Notes: generated by a model from the sequence alone, not told the origin. DNA of 64,000 nucleotides from Ignavibacteriota bacterium (GCA_963776275.1 CAVZMI010000014.1:64001-128000); one strand, 5' to 3'. Counted from the first letter of the stretch, positions 36-51,781 are shown. Numbers and translations are program-made.

Positions 36-707
36 ATGAATGATTTGGTTGAAAGAATTGGCCAAAGTGTTGAACGTGGAAAAATCAATAAGACATCGCC
101 TTATCCGAGTGACATGAAGGGTCTGGACGGTGCCGATGAGTTGACGCGTCAGGCTTTGGATGCAGCTGTCGGCCCTGATTTAATCCTGCAGGCATGCAAC
201 GATGGGATGAAGCGAATTGGAGCAAAATTCAGTAGAAATGAAGTATTTGTTCCGGAACTGTTGATGGCTGCCAAAGCCATGAAGGCAGTGATGGCCCACC
301 TTAAACCATTTTTCCAATCGGGCAGTGTTAAAGCGAAAGGGAAATTTATCATCGGTACCGTTGCAGGCGACCTGCATGACATTGGTAAGAATCTTGTGGC
401 AATGGTCGTAGAAGGCAATGGCTGGGAAGTCATAGATCTTGGCGTCGATGTTAAACCGACAAAATTCATTGAGACCATAAAAGAAAATCCCGGTTGTGCA
501 GTCGGCCTGAGCGCCCTGCTGACGACGACCATGGCTAACATGTCGAAAACGGTCGAAGAAATCAGGGCTCAATTTCCTGCAATAAAAGTTATCGTTGGGG
601 GCGCACCCGTTACTATGGAAGCCGCCTTGAAAATGGGTGCAAATGGATATTCGCCCAATCCGCAGGGTGCAGTTGCATTTCTTGATAAAGTTAATATTCC
701 CGGATAA
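36..707 (+). CDS. Corrinoid (cobalamin-binding) protein, MtaC/MetH B12-domain-like
   Basis: B12 cap motif 'F..NEVFVPELLMAAKAM', DxHxxG motif (GDLHDIGKNLV), SALLTTT and VIVGGAPVT motifs; RBS-like gaggg upstream. Confidence 0.93.
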   Translation: MNDLVERIGQSVERGKINKTSPYPSDMKGLDGADELTRQALDAAVGPDLILQACNDGMKRIGAKFSRNEVFVPELLMAAKAMKAVMAHLKPFFQSGSVKAKGKFIIGTVAGDLHDIGKNLVAMVVEGNGWEVIDLGVDVKPTKFIETIKENPGCAVGLSALLTTTMANMSKTVEEIRAQFPAIKVIVGGAPVTMEAALKMGANGYSPNPQGAVAFLDKVNIPG

Positions 708-724
708 ATCATTATAGTGTAAAA

Positions 725-1609
725 ATGAGATCTCTGCTCGCAGCACTCAAAAATAGAAAAATTCTGGTCTCTGACGGGGCATGGGGTACTTTCCTGCATC
801 AACGCGGGTTGCCGCCTGGAGAATGTCCGGAGTTATGGAATATCACGCATCGTGACGATGTCTTCGCAATTGCAAAAAGTTATATCGATGCGGGCGCTGA
901 CATGATCCTGACAAACAGTTTTGGCGGCAGTCCATTGAAACTTGAACATTATGGCCTAAAAAATCGGGCTGCAGAGCTTAACGAAGTCGCCGCAGCAATC
1001 TCGAGAGGTGCGGCAGGAGAAAGCCATCTCGTGCTCGGCTCCATCGGGCCGACCGGCGCAGTGTTGATGATGGGGCAGGTTTCTGAACAAGAATTATATG
1101 ATGGTTTTTTTATTCAGGCTGAATCGCTGAAAAAAGGCGGGGTGGATGCAATATGCGTTGAGACTATGTCTGCAATTGATGAAGCGTGCCTGGCTATACG
1201 CGCAGCCAGAGAAGCCACCGGACTTGAAGTTGTCTGCACATTTACATTCGAAAGAACCGTCGCCGGTGAATACCGCACGATGATGGGCGTTTCTCCCGTT
1301 GAAATGGTGCATGCGGTTAAGGATGCGGGAGCTGCGATTATCGGGACCAACTGTGGTAATGGATTTGACCAGATGATTGATATTGTTAATGAAATCAGAG
1401 AAGTGGACCGGTCAACACCGGTGCTTGTTCATGCCAATGCCGGAAAACCCACGCTTAGTGATGGTAAAACAGTCTTTCCGGAAACACCGGAAATGATGGC
1501 GGCAAAAGTTCGAGACCTGATAAAAAGCGGAGCCAATATAATCGGCGGCTGTTGCGGTACAACGCCGGCTCATATCCGGGCGCTGGCGAACGAAATAAAA
1601 AAGTACTGA
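725..1609 (+). CDS. Homocysteine S-methyltransferase domain protein (stand-alone MetH Hcy-binding domain)
   Basis: DGAWGT N-terminal motif, AGADMILTNSFG, Zn-ligand motifs GTNCG and IIGGCCGTTP. Confidence 0.92.
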   Translation: MRSLLAALKNRKILVSDGAWGTFLHQRGLPPGECPELWNITHRDDVFAIAKSYIDAGADMILTNSFGGSPLKLEHYGLKNRAAELNEVAAAISRGAAGESHLVLGSIGPTGAVLMMGQVSEQELYDGFFIQAESLKKGGVDAICVETMSAIDEACLAIRAAREATGLEVVCTFTFERTVAGEYRTMMGVSPVEMVHAVKDAGAAIIGTNCGNGFDQMIDIVNEIREVDRSTPVLVHANAGKPTLSDGKTVFPETPEMMAAKVRDLIKSGANIIGGCCGTTPAHIRALANEIKKY

Positions 1610-2361
1610 TGAATATTATTATGCCTCAAGCCGAACGACCAGATGAGATTGTTGAAGTCCCAATAGACTTCAACGATCTTACAGTAAGCAAAAATGAGAT
1701 TGAGTTTTCACTTGGATATTCCGAAGATAAAATTCCATCGCATTTTGAAGAAATGATAGATGATATTCTATCGCAGTTATCGGGACGTTGTGAAATAAGT
1801 GCCGGATACCGGATCGTCGATGTCAAAAAGCCTGTTGACCGGTATGACGGTCTATATGTCGGAGGTAAGTTTTTCAAGATGCAAAAGATCGTTACCGGTC
1901 AGCTCAGGAAAGCCGAAAAGGCGGCGTTATTTGTCTGTACCATCGGACCAAAAATGGAAACATGGGCCAGACAACTTATGCAGAATGGTGATACTGTGGC
2001 AAGTCATATCGTTGATACAATCGCGTCGGAGGTAGTAGAAAGTGCGACCGATATATTGCATGATCGTATAGAGCAACAAATGCGGGTACATGGGATGAGC
2101 GTAACCAATAGATACAGCCCGGGTTATTGTGACTGGTCGGTATCTGAACAACATTTGCTCTTTTCATTTCTCCCGGCAAATTTTTGTGGCATAAAATTAA
2201 CGGAATCCGCACTGATGGTGCCGATTAAATCTATCAGTGGTATTATCGGAGTCGGTGCAACAGTCAAGCGTGCAGACTACATATGCGATCGATGTGGAAT
2301 AAAAGACTGCACTTATCGGGCGTTCCTTTTAGCGCGAAACCAGCGTATCATTCATAAATAA
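1609..2361 (+). CDS. Vitamin B12-dependent methionine synthase activation (AdoMet-binding) domain protein
   Basis: RYSPGYCDW motif, LTES.LM.P.KS.SG motif, C-terminal CxxC-x4-C; ATG at 1609 overlaps the upstream TGA (tgatg). Confidence 0.88.
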   Translation: MNIIMPQAERPDEIVEVPIDFNDLTVSKNEIEFSLGYSEDKIPSHFEEMIDDILSQLSGRCEISAGYRIVDVKKPVDRYDGLYVGGKFFKMQKIVTGQLRKAEKAALFVCTIGPKMETWARQLMQNGDTVASHIVDTIASEVVESATDILHDRIEQQMRVHGMSVTNRYSPGYCDWSVSEQHLLFSFLPANFCGIKLTESALMVPIKSISGIIGVGATVKRADYICDRCGIKDCTYRAFLLARNQRIIHK

Positions 2362-2395
2362 ATTCATATCGAATTATAGGGAAAGAACAAATAGA

Positions 2396-3420
2396 ATGAC
2401 AGATCGACAGTGGGAAATGCTGAAGAGCGTCATTAAAGGTGAAATTCTAGATCCTTTTCCAGTCGGCTTTATTATTGATTCTCCATGGTTGCCGAACTGG
2501 TGCGGGATCAGGATACTCGATTATTTTTCGAATGATGAATTATGGTTTGATGCAAATATGAAGGTGCTTACCAAGTTTCCGGATGTAATTTTTTTACCCG
2601 GATTCTGGTCGGAATTTGGTATGTGCACGGAACCGTCGGCTTTCGGGTCCGCTGCACGTTTCCATCGAACGAGTTCCCTCATCCACATAAATTAATCCAA
2701 TCAGTTGATGAGATCGATTCATTGCCTTTACCGAATCCCAGAACGGACGGTCTGTTGCCGTTTGTGCTGAATCGATTGAAACTTGCACAATCAAAAATTG
2801 AGAGAGCGGGTCACAGGATTCGCTTTGCCGTCGCCCGCGGACCCCTGAATATCGCCAGCTTCCTGATGGGTTCGACAGAATTTCTAACGACCATGATGAT
2901 GCAGCCGGAGAAAGCCGAAGAACTCATGAAAAAGGTTACCGCTTTTCTTAAAGACTGGCTGCATCTGCAAATGGAGACATTTCCTTCTATCGATGGTATT
3001 TTTTTGCTCGATGACATCATCGGTTTTTTAGGTGAAACGGAATTTTGCACATTCGGTTTGCCATTTTTTAAGGAATTATTTGATGTTAACGTTTCTCTAA
3101 AATTATTACATAACGACGCACACTGCAAAGTATCTGCACCGTATCTGCCTGAGATGGGCGTTAACATGTTTAACATGGGTTTTGATATCACACTCAACGA
3201 AATAAAACAATTGACAAAGAACAAAATAGCATTAATCGGGAACATTCCTCCGAGAGATGTTCTTGCAAGCGGTGATATCACCAAAATAACAAAGACGACC
3301 ATGGATCTGGTTGATTCTCTGAAGGATAAATCGAAAGTTATTTTTTCGTGTGGTGGCGGTATGCCGCCGGGTGTAAGTACTGAAAGTATAACGGCTTTCA
3401 TTAATGCGACCAGAAAATAA
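2396..3420 (+). CDS. Uroporphyrinogen decarboxylase-family (MtaA/CmuA-like) methyltransferase; one-base frameshift near 2645
   Basis: ORFs 2396-2695 and 2623-3420 join if one G is added at ttcggg|tccgc; motifs RGPLNIASFLMG, GNIPPRDVL, IFSCGGGM typical of the URO-D/MtaA fold. Confidence 0.8.
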
Positions 3421-3428
3421 GCAGGCAA

Positions 3429-5381
3429 ATGAAATCACAAATATTGAATATATCATTGGTAGTCGGGTTACTGATTTTAATAAATGTCGCTTGTGGTTAC
3501 AGTAAAGAAAACCGTATTGATAGTCCTAACGGCTTTGTCAGAGTTGAGCTGAATTTGAACGATCAGGGGACACCTGAATTCAACGTTTTGTTTTCAGAAA
3601 ACCCTGTTATGAAAAATAATCGTCTGGGTCTGATCAGGGACGATGGTGATTTTTCAAAAAACCTCCGCATGATATCGGTTTCATCGACAGAGGAAATTGA
3701 AGATCAATACACTCTCCTGTCGGGGAAAAAAAATAATTGTACATATCGGGGAAACAGAAAAGTCTTCCATTTTAAGAACAGGGAAGATGAAGAATTTGAT
3801 ATTATTTTTCAGGTTTCAAATGATGGCGTTGCATTCCGGTACTATTTCCCGGGGAAAAACGGTGAAATTAAAAGGATAAGCGACGAGCTCACACGCTTCA
3901 GTTTTGACGACAACACACATGCATGGATTCAACCGATGTCGGCAGCAAAGTCGGGATGGAATTCAGTGAATCCCTGTTACGAAGAGCATTACTTCCACGA
4001 TATCAATATCGTGAAGTTACCCGATAACGAACCCGGATGGGTATTTCCTGCATTATTTAAATCGGGAAATTACTGGATTGTGCTGGCTGAAACCGCTCCG
4101 GATCGCAATTATTGCGCATGCAGGCTAATCCACGATAGCACCGGTTTTAAGATCGGATTTCCACAAAAAGCTGAAGTCTTCCCGGGAGGTTCCCTTAACC
4201 CCGAATCGAAAATACCCTGGTATACGCCGTGGCGAATTATTACACTCGCCGACAATCTCAGGACTCTGGTAGAATCCACTCTGGGCACCGATCTAGCGAA
4301 ACCGTCTGTACTCTCGGATATTTCATTTGTAAAGCCCGGCAGATCATCGTGGAGCTGGGTATTGTTTAAGGATGATTCGACTGTTTTTCATGTGCAGAAA
4401 AGATTTGTCGATTATGCCGCCGATATGGGTTGGGAGTATTGTCTGGTTGATGCCGACTGGGACCGGAAAATCGGTTATGAAAAACTCGGTGAACTCTGTA
4501 ATTATGCGGCATCGAAGGGCATCGGTATTACTGCCTGGTACAATTCAGCCGGCAGTTGGAACACCACACCATATACACCGCGCGATAAATTGCTTACGAA
4601 AGTACTTCGTGATACCGAATTTAAAAAATTAAGAGGCCTTGGAGTAAAGGGAATAAAGGTTGATTTTTTTGGTGCCGACGGCCAGTCGATGATAGTCTAT
4701 TATCAGGATATTATCGAAGATGCAGCCCGGAACGGACTCATGATAAATTGCCATGGTTCTACCATACCACGAGGATGGCAGCGCACCTATCCAAATCTTG
4801 TTTCGATGGAGGCGATCAGAGGATTTGAGTATATCACCTTTGAACAGCTTAATGCCGACAGGGAGGCCGGTCATTGCACAGTAATTCCATTTACACGCAA
4901 TCTTTTTGATCCGATGGATTTCACGCCGGTCTGTTTCAGTGAGGTACCGAACATTCAAAGAAAGACCACCAACAGCTTTGAACTGGCACTCTCGGTTCTG
5001 TTTCTCTCCGGCGTTCAGCATTTTGCCGAGGTTCCCGAAGGTATGGCTAAAGTCCCGCCTGAAGTTCGGCAATTCTTGAAAGACATCCCCTCTGCATGGG
5101 ATGAATCGAGATTCGTCGATGGGTATCCGGGGAAACATGTGGTTATCGCACGACGGAAAGCAGATGTATGGTATATCGGAGGGATCAACGGTGAACGGAT
5201 TGAAAAAACTCTCGATCTCGATGTGAGTTTTATCCGCAATCCCGGGAAAAATATTCTCATCACGTGCGGCAAGGACAACCGCTCCTTTACACTACGCAAC
5301 GAGAATCTTGATGGCACCCGTCCGTTAAAAATTACTTTGAAGCCGGATGATGGTTTTGTCTTTCGTATTTCAGGAAAATAA
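3429..5381 (+). CDS. Glycoside hydrolase family 97 (probable retaining alpha-galactosidase type)
   Basis: Signal peptide, SNDGVAFRY, TPWR, KPGRSSWSW, GIKVDFF (Asp nucleophile type), HG..PRGWQRTYPN, PMDFTP. Confidence 0.9.
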   Translation: MKSQILNISLVVGLLILINVACGYSKENRIDSPNGFVRVELNLNDQGTPEFNVLFSENPVMKNNRLGLIRDDGDFSKNLRMISVSSTEEIEDQYTLLSGKKNNCTYRGNRKVFHFKNREDEEFDIIFQVSNDGVAFRYYFPGKNGEIKRISDELTRFSFDDNTHAWIQPMSAAKSGWNSVNPCYEEHYFHDINIVKLPDNEPGWVFPALFKSGNYWIVLAETAPDRNYCACRLIHDSTGFKIGFPQKAEVFPGGSLNPESKIPWYTPWRIITLADNLRTLVESTLGTDLAKPSVLSDISFVKPGRSSWSWVLFKDDSTVFHVQKRFVDYAADMGWEYCLVDADWDRKIGYEKLGELCNYAASKGIGITAWYNSAGSWNTTPYTPRDKLLTKVLRDTEFKKLRGLGVKGIKVDFFGADGQSMIVYYQDIIEDAARNGLMINCHGSTIPRGWQRTYPNLVSMEAIRGFEYITFEQLNADREAGHCTVIPFTRNLFDPMDFTPVCFSEVPNIQRKTTNSFELALSVLFLSGVQHFAEVPEGMAKVPPEVRQFLKDIPSAWDESRFVDGYPGKHVVIARRKADVWYIGGINGERIEKTLDLDVSFIRNPGKNILITCGKDNRSFTLRNENLDGTRPLKITLKPDDGFVFRISGK

Positions 5382-6619
5382 TGGATAGAATTTTATACTC
5401 TGTTCTCCTTATCATCGTTCCGGTATTTTCTTCGTGCGGCATGCCTGTGATGACACAGGATTCGTCAGCCACCGAGGAAAAGCTCCGAACCATTGCCTCG
5501 ATGATACTCAGGGACGCGACATTCCAGTTTGTAGATCAGAAGAGCGGACAGCGATATCGCACTCCCCAAGATGCATCGCCGGATATTCAGATAGGGCTGG
5601 AAAGTCCCTATAACGATTGGCGGTACTGGAACGGCGTTCTGAATATCGCGATGATCAGACTGGCCGAAGTACTTCGTGAGCCGGCATATGCCGAATTTTC
5701 GTTCAGGAATATCGCTTTTAGCTTCGATCACTACCAATATTTTGAAAAGATGTATAAAGGCGAAGGGAAGTGGAACTATCCTTTCGGGCAGCGGTTCATC
5801 ATGGAAGAATTGGACGACTGCGGTGCTATGGGTGCAAGTGTCATTGAAGTGTACCGCCGTGATCCGCAGGATCGCTATCGCGCATATATCGATCAGGCTG
5901 CCGAACATATATCCGTAATACAAAATCGAATGGAGGATGGAACTCTTGTACGGTCGTTCCCGCGAAAATGGACACTCTGGGCGGATGATCTGTACATGGG
6001 ACTCTCGTTCCTGACTCGTATGGGTGAATTGACGGGTGAAAGCCGCTATTTCGACGATGCAGCCCGGCAGGTTATCAACTACCATAAATACCTTTTTGAC
6101 GGGGAGCTAGGACTCATGCATCATTGCTGGTATTCGGATCTCCAGCGTCCGGGTATTGCCTACTGGGGGCGTGCGAATGGGTGGGCACTGTTGGCACAAA
6201 TCGATTTACTCGATCGATTGCCGAACAATCATCCTCAGCGTGATACATTGCTCCTCCTTCTTCAACGACACATCAAAGGGATCGCACGGTATCAAAGCAG
6301 CGAAGGCCTGTGGCATCAACTGCTAGACAAACCAGATTCATTTCTGGAAACATCCTGCAGTGCGATGTTCACGTATGTGACGGCACGAGCCGTCAATAAA
6401 GGGTATATCGATGCGAGTTTTATTCCGGTCGCTCTGCAGGGATGGCAGGGAGTGATTTCGAAGATACATCCGGATGGACAGATCGAAGGTATTTGCACCG
6501 GAACCGGAGTCAGTGAGAATCTGCAATTCTACTATCAACGACCGACACCGCTCAATGATGTCCATGGTATTGGCGCGATATTGCTGGCCGGTACAGAGGT
6601 GCTGCAACTGCAAAAGTAA
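5381..6619 (+). CDS. GH105/GH88 unsaturated uronyl hydrolase, probable lipoprotein
   Basis: Lipobox-like FSSC, LWADDLYM, WGRANGW, GLWHQLLD, ETSCSAMF, HGIG; ATG overlaps the GH97 stop. Confidence 0.88.
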   Translation: MDRILYSVLLIIVPVFSSCGMPVMTQDSSATEEKLRTIASMILRDATFQFVDQKSGQRYRTPQDASPDIQIGLESPYNDWRYWNGVLNIAMIRLAEVLREPAYAEFSFRNIAFSFDHYQYFEKMYKGEGKWNYPFGQRFIMEELDDCGAMGASVIEVYRRDPQDRYRAYIDQAAEHISVIQNRMEDGTLVRSFPRKWTLWADDLYMGLSFLTRMGELTGESRYFDDAARQVINYHKYLFDGELGLMHHCWYSDLQRPGIAYWGRANGWALLAQIDLLDRLPNNHPQRDTLLLLLQRHIKGIARYQSSEGLWHQLLDKPDSFLETSCSAMFTYVTARAVNKGYIDASFIPVALQGWQGVISKIHPDGQIEGICTGTGVSENLQFYYQRPTPLNDVHGIGAILLAGTEVLQLQK

Positions 6620-6672
6620 TCCGTTCAGCGGATATTACAGATGTATATCTTTATTAGTCACTTTTGGATATT

Positions 6673-9195
6673 ATGATATTTACTCAAAGGCATCTATTGT
6701 TTTCCAAAGCAGGGAAATCGATTCTCCTTTTAATATCTAATCTTCTTTTTGTTGGATTCTGTCAAGCCCAAATTCCCGGAGTTGATCTGAAGTTAAATAA
6801 TCTCGGATATTTTGAAACACGTGGGCTCGATATACTGGTTTTCAATAACTGGTACGACAGCAATTTCGGCGATGCAAAAATGAGCGGAGTTGAAATTATC
6901 CATCATGGGGTGCGTACAGCAACCAACGGCGATGTGAGACTCAGCCCTACACCCGCACAATGGGATTCCATTCCGCGACTCGTAGAACGCAGAGTGAATA
7001 AAAAAGATAGTAGTATTGAAGTTTTTTTACAATATCCTGCATATGCCTTTGCTTACATGATCAAAGCCCAGGCACATGACGGAGGCATTCTTCTAAGCGT
7101 CAATCTTGAAAAACCGATACCTAAAGACCTTGAAGGTTGTGCCGGGTTCAATTTCGAATTTCTTCCTTCCGCGTATTTTGAAAAAACATATCTGGTGGAC
7201 GGTAAAAGCGGCATTTTCCCATTATATCCTACCGGACCCATGGAAGCAAAGGAGTCAGGTAAGGTTCAACCCTTGCCGATCGCCTCAGGGAAATCTTTTG
7301 TACTTGCCCCGGAAGATCCGGCTCGACGAATTACCATCAAAACCAAAGACAGCGAACTTCTTCTATATGATGGCCGCAACATGGCACAGAACGGCTGGTT
7401 TGTGATTCGCAGCCTTCTTCCTTCCGGAAAATCAGGTAAAGTAATCGAATGGTTTCTCGAAGCCGGTACAATTCCGGGCTGGACGCGGCCGCCGGTGATT
7501 GCGCATTCACAGATCGGATATCATCCCGATCAAATAAAAATTGCGGTGATTGAATTAGATAAAAACGATACTTCACTCCAGTCGGCGCGCTTGCTTCAGG
7601 TACGTGAGGATGGAGAATTCGTCGAAATATTTAAGGGCGATCTAAGAACTTGGGGCGGGTATCTCCGGTACAATTATTCTACCTTTGATTTCTCGTCCGT
7701 AAAAGAGAGCGGCCTGTACGTCATTGAATATAATTCAGTTCGAACAAAACCATTCAGAATAGCAGCCGACATTTATAAAAATGCATGGCACCCGACACTC
7801 GATATTTTTTTCCCGGTTCAGATGGATCATATGAGAGTCAGGGAAGCTTACCGGATTTGGCATGGTGCATCTCATCTTGACGATGCGTTACAGGCTCCGG
7901 TGAATCATGAACATTTCGATCTATATGCGCAGGGTCCGACAACGGATTCTCCGTATAAACCGGGCGAGCATATTCCCGGTTTAAATATCGGAGGCTGGTA
8001 TGATGCCGGCGATCACGATATCCGGACTCAGACTCAATATTATACAGTATTAAATCTGGTCCATGTGTGGGAGACTTTCGGTTTACGGCGGGATGAAACA
8101 ACAATAGACCAGAAAAAACGCTATGTGGAAATACATCATCCAGATGGAATTCCCGACCTTCTACAACAGATAGAGCATGGCGCGCTTGCTCTCATAGCTC
8201 AACATCGGGCTGTCGGTCACGCAATTCCAGGTATCATAGTGCCCGATCTCTCACAATATACGCATCTGGGCGACGCGGCATCAATTACGGACAATCTCGT
8301 ATACAATTCCAAGCTGAAACCGCTCGAGACCGATGGATTCACTAGCGGTACGTTCGATGATCGATGGGCATTTACCAGCAAATCTACTCCGTTGAATTAT
8401 GGCTCAATTGCTGCACTCGCCGCGGCGAGTCGCGCCCTTCATGGATACAATGACACGCTGGCTGATGAATGTCTGGCAACAGCAAGAAAAGCGTGGGACG
8501 AAGAACACAGCCATGAGCCGGATATTTTTTATCACGGGAACACCGCCGGAGGTTTGTTGGAGATAGAGGAAATGCAGGCGAGTGTCGAACTTTTACTCTG
8601 CACGAAAGAAACCAAGTACGCAGATAGAATAAACGAGCTGCTGCCAAAAATTGAAAATAGATTCGGTTTCATTGCCGGGATGGTTGTTCGCGCCATACCT
8701 TATATGGATGTGGCATATTCAAAAAATATTGAAGATCTTGTAAGGGACTACAAATATACTCTCGATAAGTTGAACGAACAGAATCCCTTCGGTGTCCCTA
8801 TTACCGCCGGTAACTGGGGAGGAGTAGGAGCAGTTATGGGATTTTCATTGACGAATTATTTTTTGCATAAATCTTTTCCCCAGATTATTGGAAAGGAATA
8901 TGTTTTTAATGGATTGAACTATATTTTTGGATGCCACCCGGGTTCCGACATTTCGTTCGTCTCGGGTATAGGAACTCAATCGAAGAGAATCGCCTATGGG
9001 AACAACCGTGCTGATTATTCATTCATTGCCGGCGGCATAGTTCCGGGAGTCCTTATTCTTAAGCCGGATTTCCCCGAAAATAAAGAAGATTGGCCCTTCC
9101 TGTGGGGAGAGAATGAATATGTAATCAGTATGGGATCAATTTATATTTATCTGGTAAATGCAGCAAACGAATTATTGAACAGTACTGGGGATTGA
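6673..9195 (+). CDS. Glycoside hydrolase family 9 with N-terminal accessory and Ig-like domains
   Basis: Signal peptide, SQIGY (CelD_N), GGWYDAGD catalytic motif, NYIFGCHP, ENEY near the C-terminus. Confidence 0.85.
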   Translation: MIFTQRHLLFSKAGKSILLLISNLLFVGFCQAQIPGVDLKLNNLGYFETRGLDILVFNNWYDSNFGDAKMSGVEIIHHGVRTATNGDVRLSPTPAQWDSIPRLVERRVNKKDSSIEVFLQYPAYAFAYMIKAQAHDGGILLSVNLEKPIPKDLEGCAGFNFEFLPSAYFEKTYLVDGKSGIFPLYPTGPMEAKESGKVQPLPIASGKSFVLAPEDPARRITIKTKDSELLLYDGRNMAQNGWFVIRSLLPSGKSGKVIEWFLEAGTIPGWTRPPVIAHSQIGYHPDQIKIAVIELDKNDTSLQSARLLQVREDGEFVEIFKGDLRTWGGYLRYNYSTFDFSSVKESGLYVIEYNSVRTKPFRIAADIYKNAWHPTLDIFFPVQMDHMRVREAYRIWHGASHLDDALQAPVNHEHFDLYAQGPTTDSPYKPGEHIPGLNIGGWYDAGDHDIRTQTQYYTVLNLVHVWETFGLRRDETTIDQKKRYVEIHHPDGIPDLLQQIEHGALALIAQHRAVGHAIPGIIVPDLSQYTHLGDAASITDNLVYNSKLKPLETDGFTSGTFDDRWAFTSKSTPLNYGSIAALAAASRALHGYNDTLADECLATARKAWDEEHSHEPDIFYHGNTAGGLLEIEEMQASVELLLCTKETKYADRINELLPKIENRFGFIAGMVVRAIPYMDVAYSKNIEDLVRDYKYTLDKLNEQNPFGVPITAGNWGGVGAVMGFSLTNYFLHKSFPQIIGKEYVFNGLNYIFGCHPGSDISFVSGIGTQSKRIAYGNNRADYSFIAGGIVPGVLILKPDFPENKEDWPFLWGENEYVISMGSIYIYLVNAANELLNSTGD

Positions 9196-9281
9196 CAATA
9201 AAAATAAAAGAGAAGTTCTGCCAGGGAAAAATAAAATTTCTATTGGGGGAGAACAACCTGACAAGAGAAGGGGAGATTAAC

Positions 9282-12179
9282 GTGACGCAGATAAATCGTT
9301 ATAGAATATTAACTAGTATAGTCATCATGGCCGTTTTATTTGTAATGAGTGCTCTTGGCCAGAATGCGCGGGATCTGGTGAAGGGCAATTTAATTCAATT
9401 CAATGACAACGGCGCCTGGTGCTGGTATCAGGATGAGCGGGCAGTTGTCGATATCGCGGGCGGTAAGATAATTATTGGTTCGGATGCAAGCGGATCTGGT
9501 GTAGGTGGGTCGGACCGCAATGGGGAGATAGACGCGGTTATCTTCGATCTTCAGACTGGATTGATGCAGAAGTCTGTTCTTATGGCGGCTAAAGTACTGG
9601 GCTGCGATGATCATAATGCACCAGCTTTTCTAGTCCATCCCGACGGATCGGGAAAATATCTGGTAATGTATACCGGGCACAATAATAATAACCTCACATA
9701 CTACCGTACATACGATGGCGGTGTCTGGGGGGCGCAGCATACATTCGATTGGAATACTCAACCCGGCGGTACCGATTTTGCCACAACATATTCGAATATC
9801 CATTACCTTTCTGCGGAAGGTCGCATTTACAACAATGCCAGAGGAAACGGTCATGGTGGCCAGAATCTCATGATTTCAAGTAATCTGGGAGATACATGGT
9901 CGTATGGTGGATTCCTCACGAATAATGCGAACATCGGATATGTCAATGGATACTTTAAATATTGCGATAACGGCGTCGATCGTATTGATTTTACTTGTAC
10001 CGAATATCATCCACGCGACTATAACACAAGCATTTATCATGGCTACGTTAAAAATGGCCAGACATTCAAATCAGATGGAACACTCGTCGACAGTACAATT
10101 TTTGACAAAGTTCCCACAACACCTCAGAGTTATACACCGGTTTTTATTACCGGTACCGTGGTCAACGGTATGACTATGACACGTTGCTGGAATATAGATG
10201 TCCAGAGATATGCCGATAGCACGATTACAGCTCTCATCAAAGCACGCGTGAATGATAATCCAAGTAGTCCTTCGCAGGATCCGGACCATTGTTATCTTTA
10301 TTGCCGCTATGATGGCCAGAGCTGGACTTATACATATCTCGGCAAAGCCGGTAAAAAACTTTATTCCAGTGAGCAGGATTATACAGGTTTGGGAGCGTTG
10401 TGCCCTAATGACCCGAATACCATCTACATATCAACACCCTACGATCCCCGAAATGATTCTGACCTGATCGTTCATGAAATATATAAAGGAGTCACTTCTG
10501 ATCATGGAGCAACGTGGACGTGGACACCGATCACGCAGAAATCTGTCCGCGATAACCTTCGGCCGATCGTCCCTGCATGGGACACAAATAATACCGCCTT
10601 ACTCTGGTGGAGGGGAACGTATACCGCCGCTCAAAGTTATAATGCAGCAATTGTCGGCATTCTGGATCGGCCTTCGGAAACGTTGAGTAAAATGACCTAT
10701 GTAGATGCCACAACCGCAAACACAATTCTTTCCACGGGTGAACCATTGACAACCACCGGACCTGATACGAGTGCATGACCAGCGGACAACCAATGGCATC
10801 AACGAACGGATCGCGGCAACGGCGGTTCTGTTTTCACATCGTCAGAGGTTAACCGTGAAAATGCACCTATGCTCAAGACGCAGGTTACAATACCGGTCAC
10901 GGGGGTTTATGATATCTGGGTCAACTTCTGGGGAAATCCTACTAAGAGTACAGACTGGCGGATCAAGGCAGGACTCGATACCAGTCATATGCAAATATTC
11001 CGGCAAATGGCGTGTAAGGAAGTTGAAAATGGCGACCATGAAAGCACACTCGTTCTCTCCGGCAGCGACAATACATTCCTCTATCAGGCGTATGTCGGAC
11101 GCGTCCAGGTATTGGCAAACAACACCTTTGATGTTTTCGTCGACGATGACACGATCAGAACAGGCGCACTAATTCCTCCCACAGGAAGCGTCCGCACTTG
11201 GTATGACGGTGTTAGTTATGCCATCGTGAATGGTTCCAGTACTGCACCAGTGTTCGCTCTGTCGGCACCTGAAATCAATTTCGGAACGATACGAAATGAC
11301 TCTACAAAGAAGGACAGTGTGCTTGTTTCCAATCCTGGAAACGATACACTGCGGATCACGGCAATCTCATCAACCAATGCGCGCTTTATCTTTGCACCTG
11401 CGACAATGACACTTGCACCGTTGGGAAGTGCTTATCTGGTAGTAACGTTTGCACCTCAGGATACGTCGAGTCAGTTCGGACTCATCATTTTTACACATAA
11501 TGCATTGAGTTCACCGGATACACTCGCCATCAGCGGAAAGGGAAGCGCCGTGCCTGTACCGGTGTTCTCTCTTTCGGGAACTGCAATCAATTTCACGACG
11601 GTATCAATTGGTTCTACAAAGAAAGACAGCGTTCTTGTTTCCAACCCCGGCACCGATACACTAAAAATCACGGCAATCTCATCAACCAATGCACGCTTTA
11701 CCTTTATACCTGCGACGATGACACTCGCACCATCGGGAGGTACATATCTGGTAGTAACGTTTGCACCTCAGGATACGTCGAACCAATCCGGCCTCATCAT
11801 TTTTACGCATAATGCATTGGGTTCGCCGGATACGCTTTCCGTCAGCGGGAAGGGGAGCGCTGCGGTTGCGGTTGAACATGATAAAACACAAATCCCGACC
11901 GAGTACGTGCTCAATCAGAATTATCCCAATCCGTTTAATCCCTCGACTGAGATCAGATTCGCCGTTCCGGTTGCTTCTCACGCATCGCTGGTTGTGTACG
12001 ACATCCTCGGGAGAGAAGTCGCCGCTCTGGTAAATGGGAATATTGAAGCCGGATATTATACGGCAATATGGAATGCATCATCGATGTCAGGTGGTATCTA
12101 CTTTGCGAAGTTCACTGCGAATGGCGAGGCCGGGAAACTCAAATACAGCAAGGTGAATAAAATGTTGCTCATGAAATAA
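9282..12179 (+). CDS. Secreted BNR-repeat (BNR_4-like beta-propeller) protein with two Ig-like (ASH) repeats and T9SS CTD; interrupted by an in-frame TGA at 10776-10778
   Basis: GTG start after gggag; GAWCWYQDERA, DDHNAPA, S.NLGDTW and TSDHGATW Asp-boxes; the frame stays open past the TGA into ORF 10869-12179, which ends in an NYPNPFNP CTD. Confidence 0.75.
11244..11860 (+). repeat. Tandem duplicated 312-bp (104-aa) Ig-like domain
   Basis: tctacaaagaaggacagtgtgcttgtttcc at 11301 recurs as tctacaaagaaagacagcgttcttgtttcc at 11613; the protein repeats STKKDSVLVSNPG...HNAL.SPDTL. Confidence 0.9.
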
Positions 12180-12248
12180 ACCGGATCGCGTTTTCCAACA
12201 AAATGGGAACGTTTTAACGGATAAATATTAATTGACAGATAATAAAAT

Positions 12249-13626
12249 ATGATGTATCGTAAACTAACAATCGAAAAAGCGGAGGACCTGATTTTTGGGT
12301 ATGCTCCGCATCCTGTTACAACTCCACGGGGATTAGTCATCGGAGGCGGATTTGTATATCCCGAATTGAATTTTACTTTACCCCCGATGCAAATAAATAA
12401 TGAAACCTTATCAGAGGTGAAAGGCCACTATCGCCAGATAGTTACAGATGCGCTCGAGCATGCCGTGCATCTTCATTCGAGAGGAGTAATACTCGAGTTT
12501 GAGACCCTGACCGAAATGACACAAACGCCCGATATAGGTGTTGAACTGATAAAAATCATGAATGAAATCTGTGAAAATTATTATGTGCAGCATGGTTTGA
12601 AAAGCGAAATCAGATTGACTCCGAACGATCTGCGTGAGTTTGAAAGGCCGCCCAGGCAGAGGACATCCCATCTGCTGCAACCAATGCTGGAGTTATTCGA
12701 GAGAGGAGCCCGGGCCGGAGGAGATATGTTGTCGATCGAATCAACCGGAGGGAAAGAAATTTCCGATGACGCGCTTATGATGTGTGATATGAAACAATTT
12801 ATATTCAGCCAGTCGGTATTGGGGGTGCGCGACATGCAGATGCTCTGGGGAAAAATAGTAGAGATTGCTTCCCGTACGGGGAAAATCGCCGGAGGTGATA
12901 CGGCATGTGCATTCGGCAATACGGCTATGGTACTGGCCGAGAGAAAATATATCCCTAAGATTTTTGCTGCGATCGCAAGGGTAGCCACTGTCGTACGGAC
13001 GCTGGTGGCAGTCGAGAAAGGAGCGCGAGGTGCCGAATAAGGACTGCGCATACGAAGGACCGTACCTGAAGGCGATTACAGGCATTCCGATTTCAATGGA
13101 AGGAAAAACTTCCGCCTGTGCTCATTTCAGTCCCCTGGGAAATATCGCCGCAGCCTGTGCTGATCTGTGGAGCAACGAAACGGTTCAAAATATTAAATTG
13201 CTCTCAGGGATGGCGCCTACAGTATACCTTGAACAACTTGAATATGACACAAGGCTTATGAACCAGGCAGTTATATGTGGAAAGGGCGAGATACTTCAAC
13301 TCCAAAAACTCTTTGTCAATTCGGATGTTTATTTCGATCCGCAGGCATTTGTGCTTTCGCCCGATAATGTCATAGAAATCTCGAAAGAAATTGTGAAGGG
13401 TGAAAGCTATATCGACGCAACGAAGCGGGGCTGCCTGAAAGCGTTGGCTCTCGTTGCGGAGGCAATAAAAACGGGCCGGGTGATCCGCGATCCTAAGGAA
13501 GACGAATGGTTCATCATTCTCCGACAGGATATTGAAATGATACCTGTTAATGAATCGGATTTCGTGGAGCTGGTTCTACCCACTTTAGATCAAACGAAGC
13601 TACTCTTAAATGAGTATGGCTTATGA
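12249..13626 (+). CDS. mtaB: Methanol:corrinoid methyltransferase MtaB family; one-base frameshift near 13032
   Basis: IGGG.V.PELNF, LSIESTGGKE, GDTAC, (GP)NKDCAYEG, GIPISMEGK, DLWSNE motifs; removing one G at ggtgccg fuses ORFs 12249-13040 and 13030-13626. Confidence 0.87.
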
Positions 13627-13832
13627 ACTAAATTGCGAATATTCATGACTTTATTCGAATCGATTGGAGTTGAATGGTACAGAAAAGTTGATTTGGAAGA
13701 CATTTGAACGTCACGTACTTCAAACAGGGAAGAGGAATCTAATACTGATTATTAAGACTATGTGAGCATTTGAGTTAAGGCCATCCGGGTATTTTTCAAT
13801 AAAAACATCAACCTGCGCGACGGATTTTTGGC

Positions 13833-13862
13833 TTGACATTTAGAATGATTTCTTATTATATT
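13833..13862 (+). promoter_or_regulatory. Sigma70-type promoter for the GH10-kinase-GH3-GH116 cluster
   Basis: TTGACA at 13833-13838 followed 17-18 bp later by TTATAT/TATATT. Confidence 0.65.
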
Positions 13863-13877
13863 GAAACGATTCAATAT
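13858..13877. promoter_or_regulatory. LacI-family operator palindrome
   Basis: ATATTGAAACGATTCAATAT: a 20-bp near-perfect palindrome with central CG overlapping the -10; a weaker site TTGAACCGATATAA follows at 13881. Confidence 0.7.
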
Positions 13878-14171
13878 CATTTGAACCGATATAAATCTCA
13901 GAGGGCAATACCAAGCTATATGAACAAGAGCAACTGCGTGACGTTTCTCTTGAGGGTGGAATTTTTGTAAAATTGGAAGAAAAGGTGTGCTCGCATTGGG
14001 AGGACTAAAATACTTACTCCGCAGGCGCTAATTTCGACTGGCATCTCCAGATCGATGTTGGAACACTATATTTCTTGATCATCGTCTGAATTTCTGTCTA
14101 CAAACCTCAGAATGAATGGAGATTAATTACGAAGCCGATAGGCAGTGCAAGAAGAAGTGCCTGAACATAAA

Positions 14172-15385
14172 ATGAAAACCCGAATACAAACATCTTTTAC
14201 TTCTTTTTTTTCAAAACTCCTTGGGTCTGCTACTGCGGTCGGTGCTAAAAACGACAACCAGCCTGTTTTGAAAGATTTGTTTAAGAATGACTTTTATGTC
14301 GGTGTTGCTCTCAATTTAAATCAGATTTCGGGAAATGAACCATACTCCCTCGACCTTGTGAAAAAACATTTTAACAGCATCTCACCCGAGAATATTTTAA
14401 AATGGGAAGAGGTTCATCCAGAACCGGACAGATATAATTTCGATGCAGCGACCGTTATGTGGCTTTTGGTGAAGAGCACAAAATGCATATAATCGGCCAC
14501 ACTCTTGTCTGGTTTTATCAAACGCCGGACTGGGTGTTCCAGGACGAGTCGGGCAAACCCATAAGCCGCGAGATGCTGCTTGAACGGATGAAAGATCACA
14601 TATTCACGGTGATGGGCCGTTACAAAGGCCGAATCCATGGCTGGGATGTAGTCAACGAAGCGATCACACCTGATGGCCAATTCAGAAAATGCAAATGGCT
14701 CGAAATTATCGGCGAAGATTATGTGCTCAAGGCTTTTGAATATGCCCGTCAGGCCGATCCTGACGCCCAGCTCTATTACAATGATTATAATTTGTGGAAG
14801 GAACATCAATGCGACGGCGTCGTCCGGTTGATCCAGAATTTGCAGTCGAAAGGCGTTCGCATAGATGGCATCGGCATACAAGGACACTGGGGTCTGGACT
14901 ATCCGAGTTTCGAACAGATTGAGACCTTCATAAGGGCTCTTTCCAAATTGGGAGTCAAGTTAATGATTACGGAGATGGACTTAACCGTACTTCCTTTTGC
15001 TGAAGATCACATGAACAAGGGGCTTTCATCCCTGGATTCAAAATTACAGAAGAAGCTAAATCCGTACACCGATGTCCTACCTAACTCTGTTCAAAAAGAT
15101 CTGGCAAATCGATACGCCGAATTATTTTCGTTTTTTCGTAAGCACCGGGATAAATTTAGCCGGGTGACTATATGGGGAGTTCACGATGGACAATCATGGC
15201 GCAATGACATGCCTGTCATTGGACGCACCGATTATCCGCTGTTGTTCGACCGTCAATTTAAACAAAAACCCGCCTTTGATGCAGTCGTTAAAATAGTTCA
15301 AGACCGTAGTTTCAGAACACAGATGTTTAGATTAAATAACGTTTTGGGAGAATATCAATATAGAAATCCTGCACTGTCGATTTAG
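14172..15385 (+). CDS. GH10 endo-1,4-beta-xylanase; one-base frameshift near 14450
   Basis: FNSISPENILKW, GHTLVW, WDVVNEA (acid/base), YYNDYN, IDGIGIQGH, ITEMD (nucleophile); adding one base at gcagcg|accgtt joins the two ORFs. Confidence 0.9.
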
Positions 15386-15444
15386 TAACGCCAAAAAGAC
15401 ATGCAGAATTATTTCACGTAAAATTGTATTATAAGGAACTTAGT

Positions 15445-16662
15445 GTGGTGAATAAAAAAGATATCGAAATCGTAGCTGCCGGGCATACCTGCCTCGACTT
15501 AATACCTGCTTTTACAATTGACGGTAAGGTGGATAACCTTACAGACGTCCTTGTACCCGGCAAAATGATTAACATGGGTGAATGCGTCGTTGTGGGGGGA
15601 GGTCCTGTTACAAATGCCGGCGTATCGATCCGCCGGCTCGGCGTAAAAACTGAATTAATCGGCAAGATTGGGGATGATGATTTTGGTAAAGAGATCCTTA
15701 GCTGGTATGAAGAGCACGAAGGGCATTTTAAGGGGATCAAAATGGTTGACGGTGAATCCACATCATATACCATTGCTATATGCATACCCGGCATAGATCG
15801 TTTTTATCTTCATCATTGTGGAGCCAACGACACATTCGGCTATGACGATATGGATTTCGATCTTGTTCGGCGTTCAAAACTGATGCTATTTGGTTATCCG
15901 CCCTGGATGAGAAAGCTGTATGAAAATACAGGTCGTGAATTAACAAAAATTCTCAAAGAGACCAAAGAATTAGAAACAACAACTGCGCTCGATCTTTCGC
16001 TTCCTGATGTAAATAGTTATGCAGGTCAAATCGACTGGTTTGCAATTCTTAAAGATTGGGTGCCTCTGTCGGATTTTATGGTTCCCAGCGCGGAAGAGAT
16101 ATTTTATTTTCTTTATAAAGAAAAATTTCTTGAAAAAAAGGCGAAGCTCGGGCCCAAAGAGAGCGTACTTGACCATATGACCGTAAAAGAGATTTCCACG
16201 ATGGGGAGTGATTTAATAAGAATGGGGACGGCAGTAGCAATGATCAAATGCGGCCACAGAGGCTTATATGTCAGGACCGCCGACCAGGACCGGCTTAAGA
16301 AGATGGGTGCGGCAGGATGTTCCGATCTTGAAAACTGGGCTAATCGCGAGCTCTGGTTCCCTGTTTATCAGGAGGAAAAATTTGTAGGAGCACTGGGTTC
16401 CGGTGATTCGGCAATTGCGGGATTCCTTTCCGCGTTTGTGTGGAACCATACAATCGAATCATGCTTAAGGTATGCAAACGCTGCCGGAAGTATGAACGTT
16501 ACCGTTCCTGATGGTCTTACCTGGAATAAAGGGTTCGACGATTTGACAAGGCGTATTAAGGCGGGGTGGAAAACGAAAGATCTGAAAATTGACGAGACCG
16601 GCTGGAAGAACGAACGCGGATTCTGGGTGGGGCCCTCTAACCGGGGCAAATGGGAATCATAA
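15445..16662 (+). CDS. PfkB-family carbohydrate kinase
   Basis: GGGPVTNAG..RLG, GKIGDDDFG, anion-hole GSGDSAIAGFL, ANAAG. Confidence 0.88.
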   Translation: MVNKKDIEIVAAGHTCLDLIPAFTIDGKVDNLTDVLVPGKMINMGECVVVGGGPVTNAGVSIRRLGVKTELIGKIGDDDFGKEILSWYEEHEGHFKGIKMVDGESTSYTIAICIPGIDRFYLHHCGANDTFGYDDMDFDLVRRSKLMLFGYPPWMRKLYENTGRELTKILKETKELETTTALDLSLPDVNSYAGQIDWFAILKDWVPLSDFMVPSAEEIFYFLYKEKFLEKKAKLGPKESVLDHMTVKEISTMGSDLIRMGTAVAMIKCGHRGLYVRTADQDRLKKMGAAGCSDLENWANRELWFPVYQEEKFVGALGSGDSAIAGFLSAFVWNHTIESCLRYANAAGSMNVTVPDGLTWNKGFDDLTRRIKAGWKTKDLKIDETGWKNERGFWVGPSNRGKWES

Positions 16663-51600: not shown

Positions 51601-51781
51601 CATCGCTCGATGTGCCCATCCTGGTACCTTTCAGGAGGACATTCGCAGCAATCAGGGGTTCCCCGGTAGAAGCATCGGTGATTCTTCCCGATATCTTTCC
51701 GGTCGTGCCCGCAAACAACGCCGTTGCACCCGCCGCAAGCATCAGCAGTGCAAAGAGAAGGATCGAAGTTTTCACATTCAT
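48676..51781 (-). CDS. TonB-dependent receptor; frameshift near 50243
   Basis: GTTGKISG.ITD, plug RGGRPGE..Y.VDG, SGTFNAEYGQAMSG, SPRLGIAFPI, GNANL, terminal Phe. Confidence 0.88.

Follow-up and report, generated by a model that had tools for sequence, protein, structure and literature searches.

A corrinoid-dependent methyl-transfer cassette in xylan-utilization loci of Ignavibacteria, with a candidate role in demethylation of 4-O-methylglucuronate

The DNA considered here, referred to as the window, is a stretch of 64,000 nucleotides (nt; G000:C14:64001-128000) from a 3.7-Mb genome of the class Ignavibacteria, which is 96% complete. Its first four genes encode a free-standing corrinoid protein, a stand-alone homocysteine (Hcy) methyltransferase module, a MetH-type activation domain that is predicted to bind S-adenosylmethionine (AdoMet), and a protein of the UroD/MtaA superfamily. 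These genes, below referred to as the cassette, are followed by genes of glycan degradation and by a gene for a homologue of MtaB (methanol:corrinoid methyltransferase). The best explanation of the four genes is that they constitute a corrinoid-dependent methyl-transfer system of glucuronoxylan/glucuronate utilization. A more specific reading, i.e., a cobalamin-dependent O-demethylase for 4-O-methylglucuronate that uses homocysteine as the methyl acceptor, we consider about evenly balanced between right and wrong; we infer every step of both.

Components of the cassette

The genes of the window were annotated by Pfam and NCBIfam profile scans. The cassette comprises:

36-707, + strand: corrinoid (B12-binding) carrier protein (B12-binding, 91.5 bits; B12-binding_2, 58.4 bits)
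725-1609, + strand: stand-alone Hcy S-methyltransferase module (PF02574, 231 bits)
1552-2361 (open reading frame, ORF), + strand: MetH-type activation (AdoMet-binding) domain protein (PF02965, 48.6 bits)
2396-3420 (pieces 2396-2695 and 2623-3420), + strand: UroD/MtaA-superfamily protein of type 1 (PF01208, 101.7 bits for the second piece)

The product of 36-707 displays the DxHxxG, SxL and GG motifs of a B12 module; the segments GDLHDIGK, SALLTTT and GGAP are invariant among 21 homologues including the window copy. When the genome was searched with this protein (tblastn), only the protein itself and the B12 module of MetH were found, and the three matches to PF02310 in the genome were the cassette carrier, MetH and, weakly (40.5 bits), a 531-residue ORF. 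The cassette carrier is the sole free-standing corrinoid protein found in the genome.

The closest solved relative of the Hcy module is that of Thermotoga maritima MetH (1Q7M, 160 bits), and the motifs DGAWGT, TNSF, VET, NCG and GGCCGT are kept. The NCG and GGCCGT motifs, which align with those of T. maritima MetH, supply the one Cys and the Cys-Cys pair of an Hcy zinc site, and we take these cysteines to be the zinc ligands. The module shares 30% identity with its counterpart in the MetH of the same genome, and from its sequence we propose that it is a methyl-corrinoid:homocysteine methyltransferase. The activation domain likely starts at the ATG at 1609, which overlaps the stop codon of the Hcy module as TGATG. 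Its PF02965 score lies above the cut-off of 25 bits, AdoMet binding being a prediction, and its sole solved relative is a stand-alone protein of T. maritima (1J6R, 34 bits).

The UroD-like proteins encoded near such Hcy modules fall into three groups by sequence. Those of type 1, to which the window protein belongs, are 67-100% identical to the protein of locus L031 and carry H239-N-D241-A-P-C244 and SC319GGG, candidates for a metal site, of which the HNDA-x-C and SCGGG motifs are retained in the window copy. The AlphaFold model (pLDDT 91.8) displays the UroD fold, with the best TM-score (0.81) to MtaA (4AY7), a methylcobalamin:coenzyme M methyltransferase; the scores of true decarboxylases are 0.76-0.80, with 15-18% identity. 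When solved structures were searched by sequence, only true UroDs were retrieved (E ~1e-10), MtaA being added by the fold search, while the ESM Atlas names were limited to the generic "uroporphyrinogen decarboxylase family". The protein also falls below the cut-off of every curated NCBIfam model (TIGR01463, 56 bits vs 235), and where an MtaA-type second methyltransferase (MT2) has the zinc motif H-x-C...C, the type-1 protein has H-x-D-x2-C. With 120 representatives at E<=1e-30 among 1.84 billion, and with full-length matches that step down from 53% to 46% to ~35% identity, the type-1 proteins form a small, discrete clade. Both the fold (TM-score 0.76-0.81) and the position of the gene, which adjoins that of the corrinoid protein in most type-1 loci, are those of a UroD-superfamily first methyltransferase (MT1), and we propose that the protein is the donor-specific MT1 of the cassette.

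A predicted complex of the corrinoid protein and the UroD-like protein obtained a score of 0.70, compared to 0.01 for the best of three controls. The mark applied to such scores is attained by 58 of 80 solved complexes and by 2 of 110 mismatched pairs, a calibration that holds roughly because our own alignments were used. Contacts agreed to at least 76% between runs and the pLDDT of the partner was at least 91. In the model, the cap helix and the His-loop (residues 114-116) of the carrier face UroD residues 159-171, 211-216 and 245-246, the last of which adjoin the conserved Cys244. This prediction supports, but does not prove, the assignment of the two proteins as a carrier-enzyme pair.

In the assembly, the genes for the UroD-like protein, MtaB and a GH10 xylanase are each broken by a 1-nt insertion or deletion (indel), near 2644, 13032 and 14449, respectively. 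Because this affects two of the five genes for methyl transfer, it could be argued that they are pseudogenes and that their adjacency to genes for carbohydrate-active enzymes (CAZymes) is functionally meaningless, an explanation that we find scarcely credible. A ~95% identical relative is represented by an independent 17.4-kb contig (depth 16) from a peat metagenome, the contigs of which come from the single public run that contains the window stretch. This contig is colinear with the window over 863-16000, with ~4% substitutions, and differs by single-base indels exactly at 2644, 13032 and 14449, i.e., at the three frame breaks. Housekeeping genes of the same genome are also split (HemE in three frames; MetH, UxaC, formate-tetrahydrofolate ligase (FTHFS) and PfkB), the homologues in relatives are intact in a single frame, and the gene arrangement recurs across phyla. 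From these coincident indels, split housekeeping genes and single-frame homologues, the three frameshifts look like assembly indels, and the UroD-like gene and MtaB are treated as intact in nature. Single-base frameshifts are pervasive in this assembly (e.g., C12:26651-27670, C7:1471-4958, C21:271220-272633 and C28:4751-6395), and a TonB-dependent receptor gene in the window (48676-51781) is likewise split into 48676-50367 and 50192-51781. This pattern is typical of an unpolished long-read assembly, and gene calls in this genome need caution.

Association with genes of glucuronoxylan utilization

At least 426 relatives of the Hcy module were found in contigs of one genome per species, and the best 80 loci (61-81% identity) were analyzed by calling and clustering ORFs, which were identified by a Pfam scan of one representative per cluster or by tblastn to window genes. 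The resulting co-occurrence counts are descriptive and are not tests. According to the labels of the metagenome-assembled genomes (MAGs), the loci originate from Ignavibacteria/Melioribacter, Calditrichaceae, Chitinispirillaceae, Fibrobacter, Chitinivibrionales, Kryptoniota, KSB1 and Spirochaetes, as well as from Pontiella, Opitutales, other Verrucomicrobiota, Bacteroidales, Prolixibacteraceae and Desulfatiglandales; one genome labelled Melioribacter roseus carries the cassette (L093). The cassette itself is found in Ignavibacteria, Calditrichaceae, Fibrobacterota, Spirochaetes, Kryptoniota, Kiritimatiellota and Verrucomicrobiota.

The commonest neighbors of the Hcy module in the 80 loci are the corrinoid protein (63), the activation domain (57) and the UroD-like gene (55), followed by the glycoside hydrolases (GH) GH115 (24), GH43 (21) and GH10 (19), and by SDR and GH8 (13 each). 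Less frequent are a carbohydrate esterase of type CE1 and hybrid two-component system (HTCS) regulators (11 each), LacI regulators and RACo (10 each), GH88/105 (9, within 10 kb), GH3 (8), SASA esterase (7), MFS_1 and UxuA (6 each), and UxaC, PfkB, GH67 and homologues of the window's GH9 (5 each). A recurrent order on one strand is GH8-GH115-GH43-corrinoid protein-Hcy module-activation domain-UroD-like-CE1, and in L035 and L121 the cassette runs directly into UxaC-MFS_1-SDR-PfkB. The 20 kb upstream of the window contain genes for CBM9, SSF, GH94, GDSL/TPR, GH3-CBM6, GH8, GH115 and GH30.

The link to xylan-derived uronic acids follows the type of the UroD-like protein. GH115, GH67, UxaC or UxuA is present in the examined flanks, within 10 kb, of 28 of the 43 type-1 loci, compared to 1 of 12 type-2 loci (see below) and 3 of 25 loci in which a UroD gene was not seen. 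By label, the linked type-1 loci comprise 15/21 in Ignavibacteria, 2/2 in Calditrichaceae, 4/4 in Fibrobacterota and 1/1 in Spirochaetes. The same association was found at the level of genomes. In a sample of 400 other genomes of the phylum, 12 carry the type-1 gene, all of them in the class; GH115 lies within 10 kb in 9 of the 12 and GH115 or hexuronate genes in 11; 8 have the Hcy module clustered with the type-1 gene and 3 have a pterin methyltransferase. Among 151 genomes of the class, that of the window included, GH115 is encoded in 13 of the 15 that have the type-1 gene vs 2 of the 136 that do not, and one of the two GH115-less genomes with the type-1 gene has GH67. In two genomes (G153 and G053), the type-1 gene resides in a GH8/GH10-GH115 cluster with no carrier or Hcy gene nearby, which implies that the UroD-like gene, rather than the Hcy module, is the xylan-linked element. 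Between phyla, no gene of the locus is more strongly conserved than this one: when Ignavibacteria are compared with other phyla, its median identity is 68-78%, whereas that of the neighboring GH115 is 48-57%, which suggests horizontal spread of a constrained function. The first-pass annotation of the window had placed the cassette in a glycan-utilization locus; this link is conserved across phyla, where GH115, GH67, UxaC and UxuA point to 4-O-methylglucuronate.

To our knowledge, the only methyl groups of glucuronoxylan are the 4-O-methyl group of glucuronate and the methoxyl group of esterified ferulate. An alternative donor would be a methoxylated aromatic compound released from xylan, e.g., ferulate liberated by CE1, such that the cassette would act in the manner of the acetogen phenyl methyl ether O-demethylases and pass the methyl group to homocysteine. 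In many Ignavibacteria loci, the gene immediately 3' of UroD-like indeed encodes a PF00756 esterase, which is present in 11 of the 43 type-1 loci, and the chemistry has precedent in OdmB and VdmB, UroD-superfamily MT1 proteins that act on phenyl methyl ethers according to the accessible part of PMC10418091. However, CE1 is missing from the type-1 loci of Fibrobacterota (4/4), Calditrichaceae (2/2) and the Spirochaete (1/1), and such loci instead carry GH67/GH115, UxaC, UxuA, SDR, PfkB and MFS_1. In addition, the continuation of the cassette in L035 and L121 is into hexuronate genes, and the co-occurrence at the genome level is with GH115. Because the α-glucuronidase/hexuronate association holds in phyla without CE1, we favor 4-O-methylglucuronate over ferulate and regard an aromatic donor as unlikely.

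The window's genome has its own hexuronate cluster (C21:262421-272633), composed of UxaC, two MFS_1, an SDR, two PfkB, a gene of an unnamed family and 6PGD. The gene order is that of the cassette-joined genes in L035, but the cluster is on a different contig from the cassette. A UxuA homologue was not found in this genome by tblastn at E<=1e-3. Genes of GH88/105 recur directly beside the UroD-like gene (in the window and in L049, L122, L124, L125, L078, L084, L031 and L127, where a weak GH88-like gene directly adjoins it). As a speculation, these hydrolases may act on a hexenuronate formed by elimination of methanol from 4-O-methylglucuronate.

Methyl acceptors, MtaB and the remainder of the locus

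A complete four-module MetH, i.e., with Hcy, pterin, B12 and activation modules in a row, is encoded on contig C7 of the window's genome and a methylenetetrahydrofolate reductase (MTHFR) on C3. Because this MetH and MTHFR are encoded elsewhere, the cassette is an additional system, distinct from the housekeeping methionine synthase. The canonical MetH is also the sole match to the pterin-binding family PF00809 in the entire 3.7-Mb genome; none was found in the window, as had been noted in the first-pass annotation, nor in the 20 kb upstream, where a pterin-binding gene would have indicated an ordinary split MetH. Dihydropteroate synthase (FolP) was likewise not found by PF00809; with the genome 96% complete, this hints that the organism is auxotrophic for folate or that a contig is missing.

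The cassette could nevertheless be viewed as a methionine synthase in pieces, in which the UroD-family protein replaces the pterin module, with methyl-tetrahydrofolate or a different pterin as the source of the methyl group. Taken together, the Hcy, B12 and activation modules do amount to a MetH that lacks only its pterin module, and in the available portion of PMC8630106 UroD-family methyltransferases that possibly use pterins are proposed for methoxydotrophic archaea. We give this explanation little credence: the genome already has a complete MetH, the cassette sits in xylan/glucuronate loci of several phyla and co-occurs with GH115, and in four type-1 loci the UroD-like gene is accompanied by a distinct gene for a pterin methyltransferase, for which there would then be no need. 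Furthermore, an Rfam scan at gathering thresholds of the window, L003, L032, L035 and L055 yielded no match, and hence no SAM or cobalamin riboswitch in these five loci.

The pterin genes of relatives point instead to a modular acceptor side. A stand-alone pterin methyltransferase together with a MetF/MetV-type MTHFR, in some cases also FTHFS, is found within 10 kb in 4 of the 43 type-1 loci. In L032, L037 and L039, which are the closest relatives (78-81% identity), an operon FTHFS-pterin methyltransferase-MetV-like (PF12225)-MetF lies 1.5-5 kb from the cassette, and in L067 the pterin gene is inside the cassette. In genome G229 (L127), GH88-like, UroD-like, pterin methyltransferase, MetV, MetF and corrinoid protein genes occur together in this order, with no Hcy module. 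This modularity fits a type-1 protein that serves as donor-specific MT1, with Hcy or pterin proteins as alternative MT2. In the window's genome, a pterin methyltransferase and a MetF/MetV-type MTHFR of this kind were not found, while a 91% identical FTHFS is present, and homocysteine is therefore the only visible acceptor there. The folate independence that had been proposed for the system thus agrees with the window's genome, where the only pterin module is that of MetH, but does not extend to all relatives: the pterin/MetFV module is found in the four type-1 loci and in one genome it replaces the Hcy module.

Two further groups of UroD-like proteins were observed. Type-2 proteins are ~33-35% identical to type 1 and have no cysteines at the positions of the candidate metal site. 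They are found in 12 loci (L053, L066, L069, L071, L073, L077, L079, L083, L087, L092, L094 and L096) in the arrangement RACo-activation domain-108-residue ORF-UroD-corrinoid protein-Hcy module, with a corrinoid protein ~38-45% identical to the cassette carrier. RACo accompanies only this cassette (9 of the 12 loci), and a RACo homologue was not found in the window's genome by tblastn at E<=1e-3. The third group consists of paralogues, 20-23% identical, with the classical MtaA motif H-x-C...C, which are encoded a few genes downstream of the type-1 cassette in L048, L056, L062 (15394-16437), L076, L078 and L089, often 3' of DUF362, SMP-30/gluconolactonase-like and unknown type IX secretion system (T9SS) proteins; they may represent a further donor/acceptor branch.

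From the corrinoid protein to MtaB (36-13626) every gene is on the + strand, with intergenic distances of -58 to +90 nt and a gap of 518 nt 3' of MtaB; this gene list and tight packing agree with the first-pass annotation, from which an Ig-like gene (10869-12179) was missing. The genes that follow the cassette are:

3429-5381, + strand: GH97 (three GH97 Pfam domains)
5381-6619, + strand: unsaturated uronyl hydrolase of the GH88/GH105 families (PF07470, 267.6 bits)
6664-9195, + strand: GH9 with CelD_N (Pfam)
9192-10778, + strand: 528-residue protein, possibly a BNR_4-like beta-propeller (nearest ESM Atlas clusters BNR_4, 0.92)
10869-12179, + strand: Ig-like (choice-of-anchor D) protein with T9SS sorting tail (Pfam/NCBIfam)
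12249-13626 (pieces 12249-13040 and 13030-13626), + strand: MtaB, methanol:corrinoid methyltransferase homologue (PF12176)
14145-15385, + strand: GH10 xylanase, frame broken (Pfam)
15424-16662, + strand: PfkB-family sugar kinase (Pfam/NCBIfam)

The two pieces of MtaB match PF12176 with 290.9 and 206.3 bits over profile positions 4-263 and 264-452 of 460, and the gene is present in a single copy in the genome. A homologue in L040, 75 and 65% identical to the window pieces, aligns over its full length with Methanosarcina barkeri MtaB (2I2X_A, 274 bits) and keeps the Glu and the two Cys at chain positions 164, 220 and 269, which we take to be the metal ligands; the window pieces carry the same motifs (SIESTGGKE, DTACAFG and NKDCAYEG). 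The summed score for the NCBIfam model MtaB_Meth (215.5 + 153.6) is far under its equivalog cut-off of 720 bits. The gene is located 8.8 kb downstream of the UroD-like gene and 11.5 kb from that of the corrinoid protein, and beside it no B12-binding gene, i.e., no cognate MtaC, was found. Because the cassette carrier is the sole free-standing corrinoid protein in the genome, MtaB, if working, must use that carrier.

The first-pass annotation had treated MtaB as the donor enzyme at the core of the system, which is not borne out by its distribution. Intact MtaB resides beside the cassette in 2 of the 43 type-1 loci (L040 and L055), and the recurrent xylan-linked candidate for the donor enzyme is the UroD-family protein. 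Remnants of MtaB in L031 (15895-16323), L035 (12888-13059) and G073 (C2:237844-237981), located directly 3' of the UroD-like gene or, in L031, of GH105, suggest that an ancestral adjacency of the two genes has decayed in several lineages. In other Ignavibacteria, MtaB has its own corrinoid protein adjacent in 5 of 8 genomes. Among those of L025-L029 (G014, G033, G024, G312 and G153), two have a different UroD-family gene (26% identical) and one has RACo; these sets resemble the methanol methyltransferase of methanogens and acetogens, in organisms that are not methylotrophs. No xylan genes were recognized in the MtaB neighborhoods of the eight genomes (nine stretches, in which most ORFs remained unannotated), the sole CAZyme label being a GH3-like ORF in L029; the recurrent CAZyme linkage predicted for MtaB homologues was thus not found there. 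MtaB is probably a sporadic add-on that feeds methanol to the same carrier, the core being the first four genes.

With MtaB as MT1, the UroD-like protein would take the part of an MT2 resembling MtaA and methylate some thiol alongside the Hcy module. The methanol could be formed locally from methyl esters or by beta-elimination of 4-O-methylglucuronate, which would leave an unsaturated uronate for GH88/105. Consistent with methanol as the donor, the metal ligands of MtaB are kept, MtaB has no corrinoid protein of its own in the genome, the gene or its remnants are found beside the cassette in L040, L055, L031, L035 and G073, and GH88/105 genes recur next to the UroD-like gene. However, an enzyme that is intact in 2 of 43 type-1 loci is not the general donor enzyme, the type-1 H-x-D-x2-C differs from the H-x-C of MtaA-like paralogues in the same loci, and we neither know of nor identified a lyase for this elimination. 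Methanol as the principal donor appears quite improbable, and we retain the UroD-like protein as the candidate MT1.

Several of the remaining genes recur near the cassette. GH97 is also found 3' of it in L031, L033 and L038, and a 51% identical homologue of the 9192-10778 protein is located 3' of the UroD-like gene in L090. This protein, earlier called a BNR protein, had no match in the Pfam and NCBIfam scans, such that the Atlas similarity is a lead only. Similarly, PF07470 supports the hydrolase annotated as GH105 but spans GH88 and GH105, which are not distinguishable by it. Downstream of MtaB are genes for GH10, PfkB, GH3, GH116, MFS_2, a SusC-like receptor and many T9SS-tailed CAZymes. 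A 289-residue LacI-family protein with a periplasmic-binding fold (34018-34887), in which an N-terminal helix-turn-helix was not detected, may be a frameshift casualty or a truncated regulator. In a scan for promoters and terminators, counts were not above those of shuffled sequences (35 vs 31.4 and 14 vs 14.6), and operon ends are left undefined by it.

Proposed mechanism and relation to known systems

We propose that secreted GH10, GH30 and GH8 xylanases and the GH115 α-glucuronidase encoded upstream would free 4-O-methyl-D-glucuronate, which would then be imported. The UroD/MtaA-family protein would bind this sugar as MT1, and its conserved His, Asp and two Cys residues may form a metal center that activates the ether oxygen. 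The methyl group would be accepted by the Co(I) corrinoid protein, leaving D-glucuronate for the UxaC/UxuB/UxuA/KdgK pathway, and the stand-alone Hcy module would then transfer it from methyl-Co(III) to zinc-activated homocysteine, yielding methionine and Co(I). Carrier oxidized to Co(II) would be repaired by the MetH-type activation domain through reductive methylation with AdoMet. MtaB, which has no corrinoid protein of its own here, would probably load the same carrier from methanol. In relatives that have the pterin methyltransferase, MetFV and FTHFS, the methyl group may be transferred to tetrahydrofolate, such that a catabolic route is possible.

Several considerations weigh against this proposal. 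Fifteen of the 43 type-1 loci have no α-glucuronidase or hexuronate gene in the examined flanks (some are truncated contigs), and of the four loci from Verrucomicrobiota, Kiritimatiellota and Kryptoniota none has such neighbors, although GH115 is encoded elsewhere in 3/3 of the genomes tested; overall, this was the case in 5/5 tested genomes that lack GH115 near the type-1 gene, including the Pontiella and Opitutales MAGs. Because related genomes are not independent, fewer independent events underlie the co-occurrence than its counts suggest. The CE1 esterase 3' of the UroD-like gene in 11 type-1 loci fits a ferulate donor as well. A terminator-like hairpin with a T-rich tail at 10808-10828, between the BNR_4-like and the Ig-like T9SS genes, may divide the run from the corrinoid protein to MtaB into two transcripts, such that co-transcription of MtaB with the cassette is a supposition. 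As to the chemistry, we know of no precedent for attack of Co(I) on an alkyl (sugar) methyl ether; the substrates of the known O-demethylases are aryl methyl ethers, whose leaving group is better than an alkoxide, while MtaB copes with the even poorer hydroxide by using a metal. Finally, hardwood xylan contains ~1 4-O-methylglucuronate per 10 xylose and cells require ~0.15-0.25 mmol methionine plus AdoMet methyl per g, from which we estimate that homocysteine could absorb ~5% of the methyl groups of fermented xylan, with no bulk sink where the pterin module is lacking. Because this capacity is so small, the function in this organism would be methyl salvage, as was originally suggested, rather than bulk catabolism.

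The nearest precedent is found in MtgBCDE of Ruegeria pomeroyi and the split MetH of Phaeobacter inhibens, as described in the accessible part of PMC12478193. There, a corrinoid protein common to the split MetH and a catabolic demethylase was shown genetically, i.e., a free-standing carrier serves both a stand-alone PF02574 Hcy module and a catabolic donor-specific methyltransferase. The donor enzyme in that system is a glycine betaine methyltransferase of the MttB superfamily, whereas that of the cassette would be of the UroD family, with MtaB in addition. Its pterin module MtgD is essential, with bulk methyl flux to tetrahydrofolate, while the only pterin module of the window's genome is in MetH. 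Furthermore, it replaces MetH in aerobic marine Proteobacteria, whereas the cassette is found alongside MetH in a setting of anaerobic xylan degradation. Neither an MttB-superfamily donor methyltransferase nor a bidirectional pterin module was found in the window by Pfam scans, and the overlap is limited to the carrier and the Hcy module.

In mechanism, the cassette comes closest to the phenyl methyl ether O-demethylase of acetogens and Desulfitobacterium, which is composed of four components: MT I, a corrinoid protein, MT II and an activating enzyme. The likeness includes the UroD-superfamily MT I (available text of PMC10418091) and the small His-on corrinoid protein, and some relatives of the cassette add a pterin MT II and MetFV. 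In contrast, MT II of the O-demethylases binds a pterin, while that of the window is an Hcy module; their repair is by ATP-dependent RACo/RamA, while that of the window is by a MetH-type AdoMet domain; and their substrate is an aryl methyl ether, whereas that proposed for the cassette is a sugar alkyl methyl ether in a fermentative glycan degrader. The cassette is thus unlike both MtgBCDE and the O-demethylases in its donor clade, its pterin-free Hcy acceptor, its MetH-type repair and its conserved position in glucuronoxylan loci.

With MtaABC (2I2X) the system shares full-length homology to MtaB with its metal ligands, an MtaC/MetH-type corrinoid protein and a UroD/MtaA-superfamily protein. 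It differs in that the acceptor of MtaABC is coenzyme M or tetrahydrofolate rather than homocysteine, in that the window's MtaB has no adjacent MtaC, and in that the metal motif of the UroD member departs from that of MtaA. A reactivation domain that stands alone has a precedent in T. maritima, in which MetH (1Q7M) is accompanied by 1J6R; there, the pterin and B12 modules are fused to the Hcy module, whereas in the cassette the modules are separate proteins and the pterin module is missing. Type 1 mlp clusters (Kountz and Balskus, PMC10418091) are also bacterial; they encode UroD/MtaA-like methyltransferases and a corrinoid protein but lack a methyltransferase for tetrahydrofolate. As far as the accessible part of that work extends, these clusters have two or three paralogues of Mlp plus an activase of the Ram/RACE kind, are found mostly in Firmicutes with a proposed role in methyl-sulfur/methyl-selenide metabolism, and have neither an Hcy module nor a CAZyme context; the cassette was for this reason not assigned to them.

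A functional parallel is offered by the P450 demethylases for 6-O-methyl-D-galactose of marine bacteria, in which, according to the available portion of PMC6292453, a methylated sugar likewise stands in the way of glycan catabolism and the gene for the demethylase is located among those of glycan utilization. That route is oxidative and O2-dependent, releases formaldehyde, and is unrelated in sequence and mechanism; by analogy, the cassette would be its anoxic, methyl-conserving counterpart. In the open full-text literature and bioRxiv, a scope that leaves subscription papers and supplements outside, we found no description of the cassette, no link of MtaB or corrinoid proteins to xylan or 4-O-methylglucuronate and, in the open literature, no description of anaerobic removal of the 4-O-methylglucuronate methyl ether before the uronate pathway. 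The accessible parts of GapMind 2026 and of a paper on methylotrophy in Stordalen Mire do not treat the cassette, and a preprint on the cockroach gut, in which xylan and a corrinoid protein are both mentioned, deals with a methanogen.

In its widest form, the proposal is that the cassette represents the first cobalamin-dependent carbohydrate O-demethylase. In this system, a UroD-family clade would strip the 4-O-methyl group of glucuronoxylan under anoxic conditions, using a carrier with interchangeable acceptors (homocysteine, or tetrahydrofolate/MetFV) and optional loading from methanol via MtaB, and would have spread horizontally among at least six phyla of anaerobic fiber degraders; we judge this the slightly less probable outcome. 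If true, a missing step in the breakdown of plant cell walls would be filled, and corrinoid methyltransferases would gain sugars as a new class of substrates, with a biocatalyst for demethylating glucuronoxylan-derived uronic acids. It would also explain a dependence on vitamin B12 of xylan use by fiber degraders in peat, sediment and gut, in which methyl groups of the cell wall would go straight to methionine and one-carbon pools and not to methanol for methanogens.

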